Sequence record: MH359124
Direction: 5' to 3' (one strand)
Length of the DNA: 64,000 nucleotides
DNA from: Escherichia phage SF
Shown: positions 27,850-55,539 of the stretch, in pieces
Layout of the letters: each line of letters opens with the position of its first letter
How positions within the stretch are numbered: the first letter of the stretch is position 1
Notes under the pieces: model-generated
The model's database searches: none
Seen by the model: only the letters and a program-made list of their open reading frames with translations
Told to the model about the DNA's origin: nothing
Made by a program: the position numbers and the translations under genes

Positions 27850-28485
27850 ATGAAAACTACTCCTATTACTATCGCTATTGACGCAATCATAAAACAAGCT
27901 TCTTCTTTGGCCGCTATGGCCAAAGTAATTAGTCAAAACCCTGCTCGTTATAATGCTATTTTAGAAACTCTTCGACGCCCGGGACTTAGTAATTATGAAA
28001 GCCGAGTAATTATTACAGGTGTTGGTAAGAACGCTAATATCGCAACTAAAGCTTCTGAGACTTTTGCTTCACTCGGTATACCGAGTATGTACTTGAACAC
28101 TGGGCATTATTCTCACGGTGATGCAGGATTCATTGCGCCTAATGATGTGTTGATTCATATTAGTCGTTCTGGTAAAACTGAAGAAATGATAGGTGTGGCT
28201 AAGCATCTTAAAATGATTCGTCCGAACGTCAAACAGATTCTGTTGCATTGTAACCCAGACATTCCGCAAGAAAATGAAGCCCTTTTTGATTACTCTTTCT
28301 GTACAGGCATCGCTGTAGAAGTTGACGAGAACTCTTTAGCTCCGACTATGTCCACTACATTGTTGTTAGCGCTTATCGATACGTTTGCTATCAACCTTTC
28401 GTCTGAACGTGGATTTACCTCTAATGACTTCCTTAAGTTCCACCCTGGTGGTGCACTAGGTGCCATGTTACGAGGCGAACAATGA
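27850..28485 (+). CDS. SIS-domain sugar-phosphate isomerase, arabinose-5-phosphate isomerase (KdsD/GutQ) type, no CBS domains
   Basis: ITGVGKN, HGDAG, ISRSGKTEE, APTMSTT, FHPGGALG match the KdsD-type SIS signature. Confidence 0.8.
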   Translation: MKTTPITIAIDAIIKQASSLAAMAKVISQNPARYNAILETLRRPGLSNYESRVIITGVGKNANIATKASETFASLGIPSMYLNTGHYSHGDAGFIAPNDVLIHISRSGKTEEMIGVAKHLKMIRPNVKQILLHCNPDIPQENEALFDYSFCTGIAVEVDENSLAPTMSTTLLLALIDTFAINLSSERGFTSNDFLKFHPGGALGAMLRGEQ

Positions 28486-28666: not shown

Positions 28667-30352
28667 ATGAAAAAAGCTGTTATTCTTGGTGCTGGACTGG
28701 CAACTCGTTTGTATCCAATAACGCATCATATTCCTAAGGTGCTTGTTAACTATAAACAAGACACTATTCTGAGCAATTTGTATACAATCTATTCTGACCT
28801 TGGCGCAGATGAAATTATTGTAGTAGTTCATTCAAAATTTGCTGAAACCGTTCGAGCTTATTGTGAGCAAGAAGGGTTCAATGTGACTATTCGTACAGTT
28901 GATGAAGCGTATGGTTCTGCTTATGCTCTTGCTAAATTACACAAAGATTTAGACGGCCATAATGTAATTGTTAACTGGTGTGATATTATTCCCGATTTTG
29001 GTTCATGGTCTTGGAATGTTAACGCAATCTATGTTAAGGGTGACGAATGTCGATATAATTTCGACGGTGAAAATATCACTAACGTAGGTTCAACAGGTGG
29101 TAATGTTGTAGGAATTTATCAGTTCAAAGACTGGGAATTCTATATGGGTTCTACTGATGAGGAAATTCATGAATACTGCAAAGGACGCGATTTCGTAGAA
29201 TTCCTTTACGGCAGTGCATTCAATAAATCAGAGCTTATGAATCTAATTGATTTAGGTGATATGCCTAAACTTGAAAAAGCTCATGAAGTTCGTGAACTTA
29301 ATCGTAGTTTTAATGCAGTTGAAATTGGTGAAGAAACTGTAACTAAATTCGCATTAACCGAACAGGGTCGAGCTCTTCAGAAAGATGAGATTTCGTGGTA
29401 TCTTAAAGTGAAATCAGATTCAGTTCCTCAGTTAGTTTCTGTTAATGAAAATAACTTTGAAATGGAACGCATTAAAGGTAAGCCGGCATTTGAATATATT
29501 AAATCCAAATCAAGTCTTGCTCGACCACAAATTGTTGATGCAATCTTAGATGCACTGAAATTCAGCACAGACACTTATTTTGTAAGTCCTGAAACTGTTC
29601 GTCGTGATTTCACTAAAGAATTCTATACTAAAGTTATTGATCGTTGCGAAAGTATTCAACCATTGATTGATTCATTTGGTAAAATCACACATGTGAACTA
29701 CACTAAGATCGGACGTCTGAAGCCAATGTTGAAACAAGCTTTAGAACACCTTATTCGTTATCATAACCGTTCTCAGGGACAGTACTCTGTTATTCATGGC
29801 GACCCGAACTTCAGTAATACTATGATTACTGATAATGGTGAAGTCAAGTTTATCGACCCTCGTGGATATTTTGGCGAAACCAAGATTTACGGACCAAAAT
29901 TGTATGATGAAGCTAAAGTGCTTTACGCCGTTTCAGGTTATGATGAATTCAACGCTAATCCGACCTGGGGGCAGTTTACTATTGATGAAACAACTTGTAA
30001 TGTGACTATTAACATCAATCCATTAGTTTACAAATATGGAAAGATGAGTTCGTTTAACGAGTATCATCATTTGGCAGTGGCAATTATCTGGATTGCATTA
30101 GGTGGTTATTTCAAGAATAATCCACTTAAAGCGGTAGCCGCATATTATAAAGGTATGGAACTTCTGACTAAGCAATTACGTAACATGGGCCGTGTACTTC
30201 AGGACGGCTCTATTAGTTACGACGTAGCAGAACCTGTAACGGCTACTCTGATTACAAAAAATCCTGGTAAATGGGTACTAACTGATAAAGAAACTGGTGT
30301 TTCTTATCGTCCAATCGGTGGCGATATCACTCATCAATGGGAACGAATCTAA
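28667..30352 (+). CDS. Bifunctional sugar-1-phosphate nucleotidyltransferase (N-terminal) / APH-type sugar kinase (C-terminal)
   Basis: N-terminus ILGAGLATRL (NTP-transferase G-x-G-x-R loop); C-terminus IHGDPNFSN...FIDPRG (APH/ChoK catalytic loop and metal-binding D). Confidence 0.75.
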   Translation: MKKAVILGAGLATRLYPITHHIPKVLVNYKQDTILSNLYTIYSDLGADEIIVVVHSKFAETVRAYCEQEGFNVTIRTVDEAYGSAYALAKLHKDLDGHNVIVNWCDIIPDFGSWSWNVNAIYVKGDECRYNFDGENITNVGSTGGNVVGIYQFKDWEFYMGSTDEEIHEYCKGRDFVEFLYGSAFNKSELMNLIDLGDMPKLEKAHEVRELNRSFNAVEIGEETVTKFALTEQGRALQKDEISWYLKVKSDSVPQLVSVNENNFEMERIKGKPAFEYIKSKSSLARPQIVDAILDALKFSTDTYFVSPETVRRDFTKEFYTKVIDRCESIQPLIDSFGKITHVNYTKIGRLKPMLKQALEHLIRYHNRSQGQYSVIHGDPNFSNTMITDNGEVKFIDPRGYFGETKIYGPKLYDEAKVLYAVSGYDEFNANPTWGQFTIDETTCNVTININPLVYKYGKMSSFNEYHHLAVAIIWIALGGYFKNNPLKAVAAYYKGMELLTKQLRNMGRVLQDGSISYDVAEPVTATLITKNPGKWVLTDKETGVSYRPIGGDITHQWERI

Positions 30353-30738
30353 TGCACCGTGTAGAAAACATGCTTAATCTTTGTTTTGATGTCGATGATT
30401 GTATAACAGAGTGGAATAACAATCGTGATTACGTGAACTTCAAACCAGACGTCGAAATGGTGTCTGCCATTAATGCCCTGTATGATGCAGGGCATACCAT
30501 AACGCTTTACACTGCTCGCGGTATGAAGTCAGTCGGTCCTGGTCGTATAGCAATTGACATTCTCCCAAGTCTGATTCAGAACTTGTCAAACATTGGATTG
30601 AAGTACCATAATTTGCTAACACATAAACCAGTATATGATTGGATTATCGACGACAAAGCTATGCGTCCTGACGAATTCAAAGCTCTTATGAATAAAGGCG
30701 AATTCGAAACATTTAAATCATATAAACCGAATCTATAA
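30352..30738 (+). CDS. HAD-superfamily phosphatase (KdsC-like motif DVDDCIT)
   Basis: DxD nucleophile motif near N-terminus, DDK motif near C-terminus; TAATG coupling to upstream gene. Confidence 0.6.
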   Translation: MHRVENMLNLCFDVDDCITEWNNNRDYVNFKPDVEMVSAINALYDAGHTITLYTARGMKSVGPGRIAIDILPSLIQNLSNIGLKYHNLLTHKPVYDWIIDDKAMRPDEFKALMNKGEFETFKSYKPNL

Positions 30739-30798: not shown

Positions 30799-31959
30799 AT
30801 GAATACTTTTAAAATCGGAACGAATTTTGATTTAGCTCTTCTTGATAAAATCGTAGAGCTCAATAAAACTTATCCTAATAGCTTGATAAACGAAGTATAC
30901 GGCTCTACAAGAGAAATGGCTTTTGTAGCAGCCAGACCTGATTTTAGGCTTCCTGACGTTGACAAAAAGATGTTAGAAGATTACGTTAAACGTTGTAACG
31001 AATTGGGTATTTGCTTTAACTATACACTCAACACGATAAATCCTGGTTCAAAAAGAGAACTAGTTGAGTGGAAGAAGAAAGCTATTCAGGATTATGTTCA
31101 GTATCTTTGGTCAATAGGTGTATGGCGTATTACTATCGCTAACCCTGTTGTTATGGAAATTGTTCGTGAAGTCAATAAAGACATTGAGATTGAAGTTTCA
31201 ACAATTCTACATGTCGATGCTGTAACTCAAATCAAATACTTGCATGACCAATATAATATCAAAAAGGTCTGCTGTGGAATTCATAAGAACCGTTCAGTTT
31301 CTTTCCTGAAGCGTGCAGCAGAGTTTTGTAATAAGAACAATATAATATTTGAAGTTCTCGTAAATGAATTCTGCTCTAATGCTGGTAAAGGGTATACAAC
31401 ACATTGTAGCTATCGTGACTCTTGCTATATTTTCCATAGCACCGATGTTACAGTAGATGATGCCAAATCCTTAAATGGATATCCAATGCAACACTGTATT
31501 AAAGCTCGTGATACAGATCCATTTAACTGGTTGAGAACTCGTTTTGTTCGTCCTCAAGATTTGAAACTTTATAATGATATTGGTATCACTCAATTTAAAG
31601 TTTCGGGACGTACAGGTAGCACAGACTACATTTTGAAAGTTCTTGAAGCTTATGCTTCTGAAAAGTTTGAAGGTAATTTGTTAGAACTGTGGAAGCCTTT
31701 AGAGACCATTTTCACTCTTGAAAATGAGACCGAGTTTTCACATACGGTAAATATTGAAACCTCTTTGTTAGATGGCTTTTTAGAAAAAAGGTGGTTCAAA
31801 CATCCGGATTTCGATTGTGCTAATGAAATCTGCGGGACGACGTGTACATATTGTGAAAGATATTATAAACGTCAGTTATCTAAAAATGGGTTATCAGAAA
31901 ACTCTATATCTATTATTGATATAACTAACTCTGATGACGCTTTGAGGTACCCAGAATGA
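30799..31959 (+). CDS. Cys-rich protein, possible peptidase-U32-family / Fe-S enzyme
   Basis: YTLNTI, EIEVSTILH, EVLVNEFCS...HCSYRDSC resemble U32 blocks; C-terminal CGTTCTYC (CX3CX2C). Confidence 0.4.
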   Translation: MNTFKIGTNFDLALLDKIVELNKTYPNSLINEVYGSTREMAFVAARPDFRLPDVDKKMLEDYVKRCNELGICFNYTLNTINPGSKRELVEWKKKAIQDYVQYLWSIGVWRITIANPVVMEIVREVNKDIEIEVSTILHVDAVTQIKYLHDQYNIKKVCCGIHKNRSVSFLKRAAEFCNKNNIIFEVLVNEFCSNAGKGYTTHCSYRDSCYIFHSTDVTVDDAKSLNGYPMQHCIKARDTDPFNWLRTRFVRPQDLKLYNDIGITQFKVSGRTGSTDYILKVLEAYASEKFEGNLLELWKPLETIFTLENETEFSHTVNIETSLLDGFLEKRWFKHPDFDCANEICGTTCTYCERYYKRQLSKNGLSENSISIIDITNSDDALRYPE

Positions 31960-32061: not shown

Positions 32062-32237
32062 GAAACTAAAGCGGCTAAAGTGATTAAAGAGCCTGTTCAA
32101 TTGTAATACTACGCTGATGCATTTCTTCATAGCGTTCTTGGAAGTATCGATGCTGAAGCTTTACGTTATATCAACATCGCTAAGAAATTCAAATAAGCTT
32201 TATGAATTGAGTATATAATAACTGTATTGAGGTAAAC

Positions 32238-32954
32238 ATGGGAAAACATAACACAATGAAATATATTAAAGCCGCAGATTTTCAATCCGCATTTAAAGCT
32301 GTCAATCGTGAAATTTTAGAAAATCCACAGTTCGTTACTGATTCTCGTATTGGACGTTGTAATGAAATTGGGTCTATGACAGTAGTTGTTGATACCCCTT
32401 CATCATTCAAAATGACCGACCCACGTATTAATCGCATCTCTTATGAATATGCTGAAGATTTCTGGAAATTTATGATTTCTGGTGGTACTGATGCAGAAGA
32501 AGCATTTAAGGCATATCCTAATGTCGCTAAATTTATTTCTAAACCAAAATCAGATGCTTTGCCTACGAACTTCAACACTTTCTATGGTCCTCGCATTGCG
32601 GCCCAGTTACCAGCTCTTCTCAAAGAACTTAAAGAGAAACCTAATTCACGAAGAGTTGTGTTCCAAATTCTAGAAAGTTCAGATCAGGCTTTGCTTGATT
32701 CAGACGAAACACTTGAATATCCATGTACTGACTCAGTGACTTATTATATTCGTGATGGTAAGCTTTATACCCACTGTCATATGCGTTCTCAGAACTGTGC
32801 TGTTGTTATGCAGTTGGATTTTTATCTCCAAGGAAAATTACTTCATTATATCGCTAACGAATGTGGTGTAGAAGTTGGTGATTATACTCATACCATGGTA
32901 AGTGCCCATGTGTTTGAACGTGATTTTGATTATGTTAAAGGATTCCTTGACTAA
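32238..32954 (+). CDS. 42: dCMP hydroxymethylase (thymidylate-synthase fold), divergent from T4 gp42
   Basis: NSRR, PCTDS (nucleophile Cys), YIRD, HMRSQN...QLDFY align with T4 dCH catalytic blocks; syntenic between 43 and uvsX. Confidence 0.7.
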   Translation: MGKHNTMKYIKAADFQSAFKAVNREILENPQFVTDSRIGRCNEIGSMTVVVDTPSSFKMTDPRINRISYEYAEDFWKFMISGGTDAEEAFKAYPNVAKFISKPKSDALPTNFNTFYGPRIAAQLPALLKELKEKPNSRRVVFQILESSDQALLDSDETLEYPCTDSVTYYIRDGKLYTHCHMRSQNCAVVMQLDFYLQGKLLHYIANECGVEVGDYTHTMVSAHVFERDFDYVKGFLD

Positions 32955-33853
32955 TGGCTATTTTCCGCGTACCTATCTTGAGTATGCGGTCTTATGAAAC
33001 TGGACAGTATGCTATCCTTAAGGATGGCAACTTCCAACTTCATTTGCACCGTGCTAATCCAGGTGATGTGATTACATATCCACGTAATGCATCTGATATT
33101 AAAGAATGTGAACGTCTTTTCCCGGAATTTAAGTTTGTTCCATTATGGTATAAAGATAACGCATATAACACTCGTAAATATTTCTGGTCTGAAAATGAAT
33201 TTGTGGTTGATTCATTAATTGATTATTATGATTGTGATTTTCTAATCACAGATATCACTGGATATGACGGCACTTTTGACGTAGAATTCAATTTCAATAT
33301 CACTGCGGACCCTAATAAACCACGTTTTTATATTGACGAATTCTTAAAAACCGACATGTTGTCTGTTAATCGTTCACTTCAAACTACTGTGTTGAATGAA
33401 CGTCAAAAAGAAGTGCTGGTTAACGCAGGTGCAGATGGTAATAAGATTATCGTAACCCGGAAAGTTATACGTCCTTCCATCATGCAGCGTCTTGTAGGTG
33501 ATTTGGCTCCTATTCATCTAGATGGTATTTTTCATCCATTTCGAATTAGTGACCCGTGTTATCGTTTTGAACAAGTGGTTGAATGTGCAATTCAATTAGG
33601 TCAACCGCTTTATATAACCGATCCAAATAATAGCTTCGACAGAAATAAGTATCCTGAAGAAGCGCTGATTCGAATTTTTAATCCAACTAAAACTGAGTAC
33701 TATCAAATTCTTAAAGGACGGCCGAAGATTCAATATTTCGAAAATCCTGAAGAAGTATTCCATCCAGGTCTTGGCGAGTTCATCTACTTTAACGCTTTAA
33801 TTTCTTCACCGTATAATATACCTAAATATGAAGATGTCGTAATCGAGGAATAA
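32954..33853 (+). CDS. Hypothetical protein (299 aa) at the position of T4 beta-gt
   Basis: ORF; no motif recognised. Confidence 0.5.
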   Translation: MAIFRVPILSMRSYETGQYAILKDGNFQLHLHRANPGDVITYPRNASDIKECERLFPEFKFVPLWYKDNAYNTRKYFWSENEFVVDSLIDYYDCDFLITDITGYDGTFDVEFNFNITADPNKPRFYIDEFLKTDMLSVNRSLQTTVLNERQKEVLVNAGADGNKIIVTRKVIRPSIMQRLVGDLAPIHLDGIFHPFRISDPCYRFEQVVECAIQLGQPLYITDPNNSFDRNKYPEEALIRIFNPTKTEYYQILKGRPKIQYFENPEEVFHPGLGEFIYFNALISSPYNIPKYEDVVIEE

Positions 33854-33854
33854 A

Positions 33855-34403
33855 ATGGCTAAAATTATTTTAGTAGATGGCCCGGATAATGCTGGTAAAA
33901 CAACTTTCATTAATGACATAATGGAAATTAGTGAAAGATATGTAAAGATTGATTTCCCTAAACGAACAGTTGATGGACGTTTCGACGTTAAGTCTCGAAA
34001 TGAAGTTGGCTGTTTCGAAACGATGTTGAATTATTTAGACCCTACTAAGATTTATCTGTTAGACCGTGGATATATTAGTAACTGGGTTTATGGACGTATT
34101 CGACAAGATGCGGACTCGGTTCTTGACGTTTATGAACAGGATTATGTTCGTCTTTGCCAAAACCACGATGTGTTCACAATTATTTTAACACGTAACGAAA
34201 TGACTGAAAGTTTTGAAGACGACCTTATTACTTTGTCTTCATTCGGTTTTAATACAGTAATTTCATATTTTGAAGAGTTTGCAATCCATAACGAAATCCA
34301 AACGTATCAATTACTTAATCATGATGGTGCTAACAAAGTTATAGGATTTAATGCAAGCGAACGTAATAATTTGATTACAGAAATCATCAAATGGGCTCGT
34401 TAA
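33855..34403 (+). CDS. P-loop nucleotide kinase, thymidylate/dNMP-kinase-like
   Basis: Walker A GPDNAGKTT and DRGY motif resembling the TMPK DRY motif. Confidence 0.55.
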   Translation: MAKIILVDGPDNAGKTTFINDIMEISERYVKIDFPKRTVDGRFDVKSRNEVGCFETMLNYLDPTKIYLLDRGYISNWVYGRIRQDADSVLDVYEQDYVRLCQNHDVFTIILTRNEMTESFEDDLITLSSFGFNTVISYFEEFAIHNEIQTYQLLNHDGANKVIGFNASERNNLITEIIKWAR

Positions 34404-34503: not shown

Positions 34504-35676
34504 ATGTCTGATTTAAAATCTCGTCTGATTAAAGCTTCTACTTCTAAAATGACCGCAGACTTGACTAAGTCTAAGTTGTTTAATAATCGCGATGAAGTCC
34601 CTACTCGTATTCCGATGTTGAATATTGCATTAGGTGGTGCACTGAATGCTGGGTTGCAATCAGGCTTAACTATTTTTGCTGCTCCTTCTAAACACTTTAA
34701 AACGTTGTTTGGACTGACCATGGTTGCAGCATATATGAAGAAATATAAAGATGCAATTTGTTTGTTCTATGATTCTGAATTTGGTGCTTCAGAATCTTAT
34801 TTTCGTTCAATGGGTGTTGATTTAGACCGTGTAGTTCATACTCCGATTCAATCTGTCGAACAACTTAAAGTTGATATGACTAATCAGCTTGATGCTATCG
34901 AACGCGGTGATAAAGTTATTATCTTTATCGATTCAATCGGTAATACTGCATCTAAGAAAGAAACTGAAGATGCATTGAACGAGAAAGTCGTAGGTGATAT
35001 GTCTCGTGCTAAGGCACTTAAATCTCTTTTCCGTATTGTGACTCCTTATCTGACTATTAAAGATATTCCGTGTGTTGCAATCAACCATACAGCAATGGAA
35101 ATTGGCGGATTGTATCCTAAAGAGATTATGGGTGGTGGTACAGGTATTCTTTATTCTGCCAACACGGTATTTTTTATCTCTAAACGTCAGGTTAAAGAAG
35201 GTACAGAATTGACCGGTTATGACTTCACGTTGAAAGCAGAAAAATCTCGTACGGTTAAAGAAAAATCTACTTTCCCAATCACGGTTAATTTCGATGGTGG
35301 TATTGACCCATTCAGTGGCTTGTTAGAAATGGCAACTGAAATTGGTTTTGTAGTTAAGCCTAAAGCTGGTTGGTATGCTCGTGAATTCCTTGACGAGGAA
35401 ACAGGCGAAATGATTCGTGAAGAGAAATCATGGCGTGCTAAAGCTACTGATTGTGTAGAATTCTGGGGACCGTTGTTTAAACACAAACCTTTCCGAGATG
35501 CAATTGAAACTAAATATAAGCTAGGTGCTATCTCTTCTATTAAAGAAGTTGATGACGCTGTTAACGACCTTATTAATTGCAAAGCAACAACTAAAGTTCC
35601 GGTTAAAACTTCTGATGCTCCGTCTGCAGCAGATATAGAAAACGACCTTGACGAAATGGAAGATTTCGATGAATAA
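34504..35676 (+). CDS. uvsX: Recombinase UvsX (RecA-like)
   Basis: 390 aa, matches T4 UvsX. Confidence 0.95.
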   Translation: MSDLKSRLIKASTSKMTADLTKSKLFNNRDEVPTRIPMLNIALGGALNAGLQSGLTIFAAPSKHFKTLFGLTMVAAYMKKYKDAICLFYDSEFGASESYFRSMGVDLDRVVHTPIQSVEQLKVDMTNQLDAIERGDKVIIFIDSIGNTASKKETEDALNEKVVGDMSRAKALKSLFRIVTPYLTIKDIPCVAINHTAMEIGGLYPKEIMGGGTGILYSANTVFFISKRQVKEGTELTGYDFTLKAEKSRTVKEKSTFPITVNFDGGIDPFSGLLEMATEIGFVVKPKAGWYAREFLDEETGEMIREEKSWRAKATDCVEFWGPLFKHKPFRDAIETKYKLGAISSIKEVDDAVNDLINCKATTKVPVKTSDAPSAADIENDLDEMEDFDE

Positions 35677-42239: not shown

Positions 42240-42273
42240 TAACTTCTCTTATACTGAATTGAAAGGAAAAATA

Positions 42274-42795
42274 ATGGCGCACTTTAACGAATGTTCACAA
42301 CTTATTTCTGGTGTTGATAAAGCAGAAGAAGCTTATTTTAATGCTCTGATTCATGAAGATAAAGACCCATTGCAGGTAATGCTTGATATGCAGAAATCTT
42401 TACAGGTTCGTCTGGCAAATGACAAGCCTGAACATAACAAACATCCTGATGAATTGGCCACTGCTGGCGATGTTGTTGATTGGCTGCGTAATCAGAAAGA
42501 TTATATCGATGATGAATTCCGTGAACTGCTGACTTCACTTGGTGGTATGAGCAATGGTGAAAAAGCCGCTAGCTCTGTATGGAAGCCGTGGAAAGCACAA
42601 CATGCTGAATATCGAAATCGACGTATCGATGAACTGTCTCCTGAAGACCAGCTTGAAATTAAATTCGAGATGATTGATATCCTCCACTTTGTTCTGAATA
42701 TGTTCCAAGGCCTAGGTCTTTCCGCTGAAGAAATCTTTAAACTTTACTACTTGAAAAACCAACACAACTTTGAACGCCAGGATAATGGTTACTGA
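42274..42795 (+). CDS. 56: dCTP/dCDP pyrophosphatase gp56 (MazG-like)
   Basis: MAHFNEC...matches T4 gp56. Confidence 0.9.
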   Translation: MAHFNECSQLISGVDKAEEAYFNALIHEDKDPLQVMLDMQKSLQVRLANDKPEHNKHPDELATAGDVVDWLRNQKDYIDDEFRELLTSLGGMSNGEKAASSVWKPWKAQHAEYRNRRIDELSPEDQLEIKFEMIDILHFVLNMFQGLGLSAEEIFKLYYLKNQHNFERQDNGY

Positions 42796-54438: not shown

Positions 54439-55539
54439 ATGAAAGTTATGTTTATCCCATCTCGTGCAGTCCCATTTAATCCTGACCGTGTACAAGGTGG
54501 TCTTGAAGCAGTACATTTAAATGTGCTGAAATATTTAGTTTCTATTGGTGCCGATATTGATTATATCGGTTTTGATAATGACACGTTTGGTGACTGGAAA
54601 GTTACACACCACCCTGTTGGACATCTGACTAAATTCAGTCTAGGTATGAGTTATACTATGGCTCGTAAGATTGTTGAACTAGCCGGCATCCATGAATACG
54701 ATTTTGTTGTTACTATGGAACCGACTAAACTAACCGTTCAGGCAATTAAAGACGCAGGTCTCTCTAAAGTTCATAAGAATTTTATGGCAACACCATTTGA
54801 ACCTGTATCTCGTGGCATTGTTCAAATTTGGGACCAGACTATTCAAATTCATAAGAATGGTGGTAAGAGTTATGCTCCTACTAAAGCCTTCCGTGAATTT
54901 GAACGCAAATATTGTTATATGACTTCAGGTCTGACTGACAAAATTGATTATGATTATTGGCGAGCAAATCCGTTGTTTGAAGCCGAAGATTATCCGGTTA
55001 TTTGTTTGAATGAGAAACCTGAAGTTCTTCCTGCGACTGATCTGATTATTAGTGCACAACGTTATGACACTAAAATGCGTCGTACTGATGTTGCTCTTGA
55101 AGCGATTAAAGCACTAGGCGAAAATGGTGTAGGATACTGTCCAAGCAAATGGGCACCACCAGCTAAATATCCTGTTATTATTGATGCTCCACACAGTGAA
55201 ATCATGGAACGTCTTAAAACAGCTAAAGCACTTATTAATACGTGTCCTGACACAGGTACGGTAGAGAATAGTTCTATTGAAGCCATCTCTAAAGGTGTCC
55301 CTGTAATCCAGTTAGTTTTTAAGGATTATCCTCATGCGACATTCGAATACGACCCAGATACTGTGCGTGTAGAAATTGATTCCTCTACTCCTAAGAAAGA
55401 AGTAGTTGCGCTTTACACAAAAGCTGTATTAGAATTCACTGACACATACGAAGCTCGAGTTAAACGTGCTGAAGCAGTATGGAAGAAGTATAACCGAGAT
55501 GCAGTTGTTGCGATGTGGGATAAAATCTTCACAGCGTAA
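54439..55539 (+). CDS. GT-B-fold glycosyltransferase (GT4-like), candidate DNA hydroxymethylcytosine glycosyl(arabinosyl)transferase
   Basis: C-terminal GTVENSSIEAISKGVPVI resembles the GT4 EX7E region; inserted between 39 and rIIA where T4 has only a small ORF. Confidence 0.6.
   Translation: MKVMFIPSRAVPFNPDRVQGGLEAVHLNVLKYLVSIGADIDYIGFDNDTFGDWKVTHHPVGHLTKFSLGMSYTMARKIVELAGIHEYDFVVTMEPTKLTVQAIKDAGLSKVHKNFMATPFEPVSRGIVQIWDQTIQIHKNGGKSYAPTKAFREFERKYCYMTSGLTDKIDYDYWRANPLFEAEDYPVICLNEKPEVLPATDLIISAQRYDTKMRRTDVALEAIKALGENGVGYCPSKWAPPAKYPVIIDAPHSEIMERLKTAKALINTCPDTGTVENSSIEAISKGVPVIQLVFKDYPHATFEYDPDTVRVEIDSSTPKKEVVALYTKAVLEFTDTYEARVKRAEAVWKKYNRDAVVAMWDKIFTA

Follow-up and report, generated by a model that had tools for sequence, protein, structure and literature searches.

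The stretch of Escherichia phage SF DNA analyzed here (MH359124; 64,000 nt, hereafter the window, to whose positions all coordinates refer) encodes, where phage T4 has its β-glucosyltransferase gene (β-gt), a 299-aa protein that we call GT1 and a 182-aa P-loop kinase that we call KIN. GT1 and KIN are probably cistrons 2 and 3 of the core operon of an arabinosyl-5-hydroxycytosine hypermodification cluster, in which GT1 would transfer the first arabinose to 5-hydroxycytosine and KIN would most likely be the module's own nucleoside monophosphate (NMP) kinase. The genes, the folds, the orthology to RB69 gp46:47 and gp45, the operon anatomy, the co-occurrence and the purifying selection come from our own analysis; the literature supplies the chemistry of the DNA, the activity of the synthase, the route to UDP-arabinofuranose (UDP-Araf) and the evidence that the gene-1-type kinase acts on 5-hydroxy-dCMP (5hodCMP). 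From the two together we infer the donor and acceptor of GT1, the level (DNA or nucleotide) at which it acts, and the substrate of KIN.

The cluster has already been described, and what we report is not a new system. It was noted in 2018 (Thomas 2018) and worked out in 2025-2026 in Cell Host Microbe (Mahler et al. 2025), in Nat Chem Biol (He et al. 2026) and by Lee et al. 2026, whose Table 1 gives predicted roles to the counterparts of GT1 and KIN. Arabinosyl-5-hydroxycytosine shields RB69-like phages, phages of Acinetobacter and others against restriction enzymes, CRISPR systems that target DNA, and DNA glycosylases; the locus therefore matters when therapeutic phages are selected and for the enzymatic synthesis of glycosylated DNA. 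GT1 and KIN are the least-tested parts of the pathway, and their substrates would decide whether phage DNA glycosylation can occur at the nucleotide stage.

Genomic context and operon anatomy

The two open reading frames (ORFs) lie on the plus strand at 32954-33853 (GT1) and 33855-34403 (KIN). They are preceded by a ThyA-family gene (32238-32954) and followed by uvsX (34504-35676) and then genes 40 and 41. The order in T4 is 43, imm.1, imm, 42, β-gt, segA, uvsX, 40, 41, so that GT1 and KIN fill the β-gt/segA slot; the first-pass annotation, made from the sequence alone, was thus correct in placing the pair between the gene-42 position and uvsX. The region is 98% identical to Mosigvirus genomes such as PHB12, HX01 and HY126, and is colinear with HY126 and RB69.

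Both are genuine genes and not chance ORFs, because they have strong PHROG matches (phrog_3891, E = 1e-154, for GT1; phrog_761, E = 5e-45, for KIN), homologues numbering in the hundreds (at least 138 clusters for GT1, 27 for KIN), a presence in many phage records (347 and 342, respectively), and low ratios of nonsynonymous to synonymous substitution rates (Nei-Gojobori ω of ~0-0.1 for both genes against close relatives). Summed over three close relatives, the differences were 54 synonymous and 16 non-synonymous in GT1, and 22 and 6 in KIN.

The stop codon of the ThyA-family gene overlaps the GT1 start codon (TAATG), and the KIN ATG begins 1 nt past the GT1 stop, with its Shine-Dalgarno sequence (GAGG) inside the 3' end of GT1. 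Taken with the promoter-like and terminator-like sites listed in Table 1, this arrangement points to a translationally coupled three-gene operon that runs from a middle promoter to a terminator.

The upstream gene is not the gene 42 that the first-pass annotation took it to be. Its product is only 25% identical to T4 gp42, and 99% identical to PDB 9iqc. It carries RSQN...D (RSQNCAVVMQLD at residue 183), which corresponds to the changes D169N and N177D of E. coli ThyA, where T4 gp42 has RSND. The D169N signature has been found experimentally to mark flavin-dependent 5-hydroxy-dCMP synthases, and the RB69 orthologue, gp48, makes 5hodCMP (Lee et al. 2026). By these sequence features the product is identified as a 5-hydroxy-dCMP synthase, not a dCMP hydroxymethylase. 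RB69 DNA contains mono- and di-arabinosylated 5-hydroxycytosine and no arabinosyl-hydroxymethylcytosine (Lee et al. 2026). The identity of the synthase and its D169N change accordingly indicate arabinosyl-5-hydroxycytosine, rather than a glycosylated hydroxymethylcytosine, as the pathway product. Many GenBank records label the synthase gene as thymidylate synthase or dCMP hydroxymethylase.

Fold and orthology of GT1

The description of the 299-aa protein as having no recognizable motif holds at the level of sequence: GT1 had no Pfam or NCBIfam match at E ≤ 0.1 and no PDB sequence match at E ≤ 10. Structure prediction, which the first-pass annotation had proposed as a search for a GT-A or GT-B fold, gave GT-B. 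The AlphaFold2 model, built from an 87-sequence alignment (predicted local distance difference test score 95.5, predicted template modelling score 0.90), has two Rossmann-like β/α/β domains with an inter-domain cleft and superposes on solved GT-B enzymes. Fold comparison gave scores of 17.4 with sucrose-phosphate synthase (6kih), 16.7 with BshA (6n1x), 15.9 with PimA (2gej), 14.0 with the HY126 366-aa transferase (9iqz), and 13.1 with T4 α-glucosyltransferase; T4 β-glucosyltransferase was not within the top 60 fold matches. Profile comparisons likewise detected no homology to T4 β-glucosyltransferase (hhalign probability 0.3%) and no relationship to GT2, the 366-aa glycosyltransferase encoded elsewhere in the window, so that GT1 is neither a diverged β-gt nor, at the sequence level, a paralogue of GT2. 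On the strength of the model, GT1 is predicted to be a glycosyltransferase of GT-B, GT4-like fold that replaces β-gt without being homologous to it, in agreement with the earlier claim of replacement. GT1 lacks the EX7E motif of GT4-family enzymes: in the family consensus HPGLxEF alone is conserved (H270, P271 and G272 are invariant), with no conserved second Glu eight residues after it.

GT1 is 99% identical at the DNA level to RB69p047 plus RB69p046 and, as noted above, belongs to phrog_3891. In the RB69 reference (NC_004928, 3098-3998) one extra T, at alignment column 545, splits the gene into these two pieces. The window and all other relatives compared have a single 299-aa ORF, and the split is confined to the RB69 record; Lee et al. 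2026 likewise attribute the gp46:47 split to the extra T. For gp46:47 of RB69 these authors also predicted a GT-B fold and, because phages that mono-arabinosylate their DNA keep only a gp46:47-type transferase at this position, took the protein to be the putative first arabinosyltransferase. By the same synteny and phyletic logic, GT1 is predicted to be the first, base-proximal transferase. The suggestion in the first-pass annotation that the protein could be a second transferase therefore stands for "transferase", given the GT-B fold, and falls for "second", a place that would belong to GT2 (54439-55539).

The KIN kinase

KIN has the motifs GPDNAGKTT (residues 9-17) and DRGY (residues 70-73) and a thymidylate kinase (TMPK) fold that includes the P-loop and the DR motif, as expected of the TMPK-like P-loop kinase first described; it is 99% identical to RB69p045. 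Its family is small, a search of 1.84 billion proteins having recovered 291 representatives at E ≤ 1e-3, and has the invariant motifs FPK, RNE, FET, DR, SN and F-DDLI. There was no match to PF02223 (Thymidylate_kin) at E ≤ 0.1, KIN falling below the Pfam gathering threshold, and the best PDB profile match to a TMPK was to the vaccinia enzyme (E = 0.0064), over residues 4-42 only; KIN-TMPK profile alignments span only the P-loop to FPKR segment. A BFVD fold search with KIN returned its own orthologue plus generic TMPK and deoxynucleoside kinase folds only. In comparisons with the T4 gene 1 deoxynucleoside monophosphate kinase (PDB 1dek/1del), structural or sequence similarity was not found.

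Two substrates or roles proposed at the outset do not fit this context. Hydroxymethyl-dCMP is absent in this phage because the neighboring ThyA homologue makes 5hodCMP, and a simple takeover of the role of gene 1 is at odds with RB69 gp159, a gene-1-type kinase that already phosphorylates 5hodCMP. The other proposal, a modified nucleotide as the KIN substrate, is plausible, and the genomic tie to 5-hydroxy-dCMP synthases speaks against a kinase that acts mainly on dTMP. A role for KIN in sugar activation was rejected, since KIN persists in modules without arabinose genes nearby. A transposon-sequencing preprint on Bas46 yielded no essentiality data for GT1 or KIN.

Comparative genomics of the module

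About 345 phage genomes carry the hydroxylase, the transferase and the kinase together, and the three are also found together in unrelated phage lineages. Gene neighborhoods were compared within 6 kb at 51 viral loci encoding profile-scored GT1 relatives. In most of them a ThyA-like gene is immediately upstream of GT1, and it carries RS.N...D in 47 of the 48 loci where it was found. The kinase gene directly follows GT1, except that in JS98-like phages and certain others it precedes GT1 by a few genes; all of the Straboviridae loci that were examined retain KIN, under purifying selection.

Outside this arrangement, GC-rich contigs from non-T4 myoviruses (L029-L042 and L047; e.g., L039, 4865-7588) have an isolated plus-strand cassette of synthase, GT1 and kinase genes set among minus-strand genes; the GT1 proteins are ~350 aa long, and no arabinose-pathway genes occur within 6 kb. 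In the Pootjesviridae, the first sugar on 5-hydroxycytosine is galactose, and these contigs are probably Pootjesviridae-like phages that use another first sugar. Two loci (L048 and L051) have a kinase, a GT1-like and a U32-family gene beside a DnaE-type polymerase gene, with no ThyA homologue within 6 kb. Five others (L054 and L057-L060) have a D169N ThyA-like gene, a gene for a kinase fused to an HhH-GPD domain (base-flipping DNA glycosylase superfamily), and a GT1-like gene; L054 also adjoins genes for an FMN reductase, an arabinose-5-phosphate-isomerase-like protein and an AfhE-like protein. The kinase relatives with a C-terminal HhH-GPD domain (P0179, P0180, P0185, P0187, P0189, P0195 and P0196) differ from KIN in the predicted NMP-binding segment. 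Across three module architectures the constant pair is thus that of kinase and GT1, which are tied to the hydroxylated base and not to a particular sugar.

In three of the loci (L015, L024 and L026), uvsX is in two pieces ~0.8-1 kb apart, which suggests an inserted homing endonuclease, intron or intein; this split is absent from the window.

Proposed roles and alternatives

In the pathway that we favor, dCMP supplied by the dCTPase would be hydroxylated at C5 by the flavin-dependent ThyA homologue. The product would be raised to 5-hydroxy-dCTP by a nucleotide kinase together with the nucleoside diphosphate kinase of the host, and the phage polymerase would then incorporate the triphosphate into DNA. 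The isomerase, the AfhE-like kinase/pyrophosphorylase and the HAD phosphatase would make UDP-Araf, from which GT1 would transfer the first, base-proximal α-arabinofuranose to the 5-hydroxyl and GT2 would add the second arabinose. KIN most likely converts 5hodCMP to 5-hydroxy-dCDP.

Several observations weigh against these assignments. In the literature available to us we found no report of biochemical activity for GT1 or KIN, though direct tests may be described in Mahler et al. 2025 or in He et al. 2026. Purified DLP3 transferases, supplied singly with UDP-Araf or UDP-arabinopyranose, did not arabinosylate DNA containing 5-hydroxycytosine (5hoC-DNA). RB69 gp159 converts 5hodCMP to 5-hydroxy-dCDP, so that KIN would be redundant under the simple assignment, yet it is strictly retained. 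Lastly, the GT1 homologue TH1_063 of Shewanella phage Thanatos has been reported to give UDP-xylose from UTP plus xylose-1-phosphate (PMC12838424).

Some of these points would be accommodated if glycosylation were pre-replicative, i.e., if GT1 arabinosylated 5hodCMP, KIN phosphorylated the bulky arabinosyl-5-hydroxy-dCMP, which a gene-1-type kinase would not accept, and the polymerase incorporated the glycosylated dNTP, such that 5-hydroxycytosine was never exposed in DNA. Such a route, if it existed, would be the first case of a DNA precursor being glycosylated before replication. The mutagenic lesion 5-hydroxycytosine is excised from DNA by endonucleases III and VIII, and its non-exposure would be advantageous. 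A pre-replicative route would also explain the retention of KIN under purifying selection when a gene-1-type kinase handles 5hodCMP, and the invariant pairing of KIN with GT1 whether the module has a ThyA-like hydroxylase, a U32 protein or a kinase-HhH-GPD fusion. The inactivity of the DLP3 transferases on 5hoC-DNA points the same way, and the DLP3 authors cannot place the first sugar on nucleotide versus DNA; this in vitro negative may, however, reflect a missing partner or unsuitable conditions. The acidity of GT1 (isoelectric point, pI, 5.06; family median 5.2) fits an enzyme that does not bind DNA, but net charge is weak evidence on DNA binding because UvsX is acidic as well (pI 5.45). Moreover, expression of just the synthase and the gene-1-type kinase leads to incorporation of 5-hydroxy-dC into DNA, and the later arabinoses are added on DNA. 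To our knowledge all characterized phage DNA glycosylation is post-replicative, and we consider the pre-replicative route unlikely, though less so than the alternatives that follow.

It is improbable that KIN is an ordinary thymidylate kinase that boosts dTTP supply and has no connection to cytosine modification, although it has the TMPK fold with the P-loop, FPKR and DR motifs, 'thymidylate kinase' is the name given to phrog_761, and RB69p045 and several RefSeq and GenBank records are annotated in this way. The absence of a Pfam Thymidylate_kin match and the restriction of the best PDB match to ~40 residues speak against it, as does the occurrence of this tiny family essentially only beside 5-hydroxycytosine modules. 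Besides, dTMP phosphorylation in T4-type phages comes from gene 1. More doubtful again is the possibility that GT1, rather than transferring the sugar, activates it as a UDP-pentose pyrophosphorylase, an activity claimed for TH1_063 on the basis of a UDP-xylose peak in liquid chromatography-tandem mass spectrometry (PMC12838424). The predicted fold of GT1 is GT-B and not that of a nucleotidyltransferase, GT1 also occurs in modules without sugar-activation genes within 6 kb, and the cluster already has a genuine NTP-transferase domain, reported in HY126 to be the UDP-arabinose pyrophosphorylase. The acceptor tests of TH1_063 used unmodified C substrates and were therefore blind to transferase activity (PMC12838424). 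We give least credence to a DNA-level role for KIN, in which it would phosphorylate 5-hydroxycytosine or its sugar in the manner of the 5-hydroxymethyldeoxyuridine DNA kinases of thymidine hypermodification. The sub-lineage in which the kinase is fused to an HhH-GPD domain, with genes for a D169N ThyA homologue and a GT1-like protein on either side, is in keeping with action on DNA, but these fusion proteins are the ones that depart from KIN in the predicted NMP-binding segment; KIN itself is very acidic (pI 4.7) and has no DNA-binding domain. In addition, the final base has no phosphate, and the hydroxyl that accepts the sugar from a UDP-sugar transferase must be free and not phosphorylated.

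Other genes of the cluster

The remaining cluster genes in the window are listed with the operon features in Table 1. According to work on HY126, UDP-Araf is made by the isomerase, AfhE-like and HAD proteins, with AfhE reported as the UDP-arabinose pyrophosphorylase. GT2 is virtually the same protein as the one whose structure was solved as 'phage HY126 glycosyltransferase' (9iqz/9ir0), and its gene sits between a topoisomerase gene and rIIA.

Table 1. Operon features and cluster genes in the window.
Feature	Position	Strand	Basis or remark
Arabinose-5-phosphate isomerase (KpsF/GutQ/KdsD family)	27850..28485	+	NCBIfam TIGR00393, E = 2e-32; RB69p055 in Lee 2026
Bifunctional sugar kinase/UDP-arabinose pyrophosphorylase (AfhE-like, RB69 gp52:53)	28667..30352	+	Pfam NTP_transferase plus kinase-like C-terminal part; phrog_4098
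HAD-type sugar phosphatase (AfhF-like, RB69 gp51)	30337..30738	+	TIGR01689 capsule biosynthesis phosphatase, E = 3.5e-13
Peptidase-U32-family Fe-S-type protein (RB69 gp50)	30799..31959	+	Pfam PF01136, E = 6e-11
T4 middle-promoter-like site, GCTT(N13)TATAAT	32197..32219	+	18 nt before synthase start; middle promoter annotated there in SA79RD
5-Hydroxy-dCMP synthase (ThyA homologue)	32238..32954	+	99% identity to PDB 9iqc/9ir2/9iqu
GT1, minimal GT-B (GT4-like) glycosyltransferase, RB69 gp46:47 orthologue, predicted first-arabinofuranose transferase	32954..33853	+	Predicted fold and orthology
Second middle-promoter-like site, GCTT(N14)TATAAT, within GT1 3' end	33794..33817	+	Annotated middle promoter in SA79RD
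KIN, thymidylate-kinase-fold P-loop nucleotide kinase, RB69 gp45 orthologue	33855..34403	+	Fold and motifs
Terminator-like hairpin and T-run over KIN stop codon	34389..34413	+	Sequence scan; rho-independent terminator annotated there in SA79RD
dCTP pyrophosphatase (gp56-like), dCMP supply and dCTP exclusion	42259..42795	+	Matches annotated HY126 dCTP pyrophosphatase
GT2, 366-aa GT4-like glycosyltransferase (RB69 ORF003c/gp3), predicted second arabinosyltransferase	54439..55539	+	E = 4.7e-251 to PDB 9iqz/9ir0

The RB69 counterpart of the U32 protein, gp50, is listed merely as 'sugar or heterocycle reductase' (Lee 2026). In the U32 protein 11 cysteines are invariant, among them those of a CX4CX3CX2C cluster at the C-terminal end, and homologues that are 48-51% identical to it adjoin the GT1-like and TMPK-like kinase genes in the two contigs with a DnaE-type polymerase (L048, 5466-8051; L051, 4301-6865). 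In E. coli the U32 protein RlhA, which relies on Fe-S clusters and on prephenate, is needed to form 5-hydroxycytidine in 23S rRNA (PMC5727448). Because of this precedent, and because the U32, GT1-like and kinase genes are adjacent where no ThyA homologue lies within 6 kb, the phage U32 protein may, by analogy, be a second, oxygen-independent cytosine-5 hydroxylase. A literature search found no paper joining U32, arabinosyl and phage.

Comparison with known systems

RB69 gp46:47, DLP3 gp79, Thanatos TH1_063 and RL38JI gp215 ('arabinosyl/galactosyl-transferase 1', phrog_3891) show no substantive difference from GT1, and the function given for them in the literature is a prediction. Similarly, RB69 gp45, DLP3 gp78 and RL38JI gp214 ('nucleotide kinase') do not differ from KIN. 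The β- and α-glucosyltransferases of T4 share the GT-B fold with GT1 and glycosylate DNA bases from UDP-sugars, and β-gt occupies the same genomic slot as GT1, from the ThyA-family gene to uvsX.

The best structural matches of GT1 are retaining enzymes of the GT4 family (6kih, 6n1x and 2gej), over 245-267 aligned residues. Identity to them is 7-12%, GT1 has no match to Pfam Glycos_transf_1 or Glyco_trans_4 and is ~60-100 residues shorter, and of the EX7E motif only the first Glu is recognizable by eye (in HPGLGEF). Retaining chemistry of the GT4 type would fit the α linkage of the base-proximal arabinose. KIN shares with thymidylate kinase (PF02223) the fold, the P-loop GxxxxGKT, FP(K/Q)R and the DR motif. 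Thymidylate kinases have DRY or DRH where KIN has DRG-Y, the RNE, FET and F-DDLI motifs of KIN have no evident TMPK counterpart, and KIN, unlike TMPK, is restricted in its distribution to 5-hydroxycytosine modules. The T4 gene 1 kinase (RB69 gp159) is, as KIN would be, a P-loop NMP kinase of a modified-cytosine pathway.

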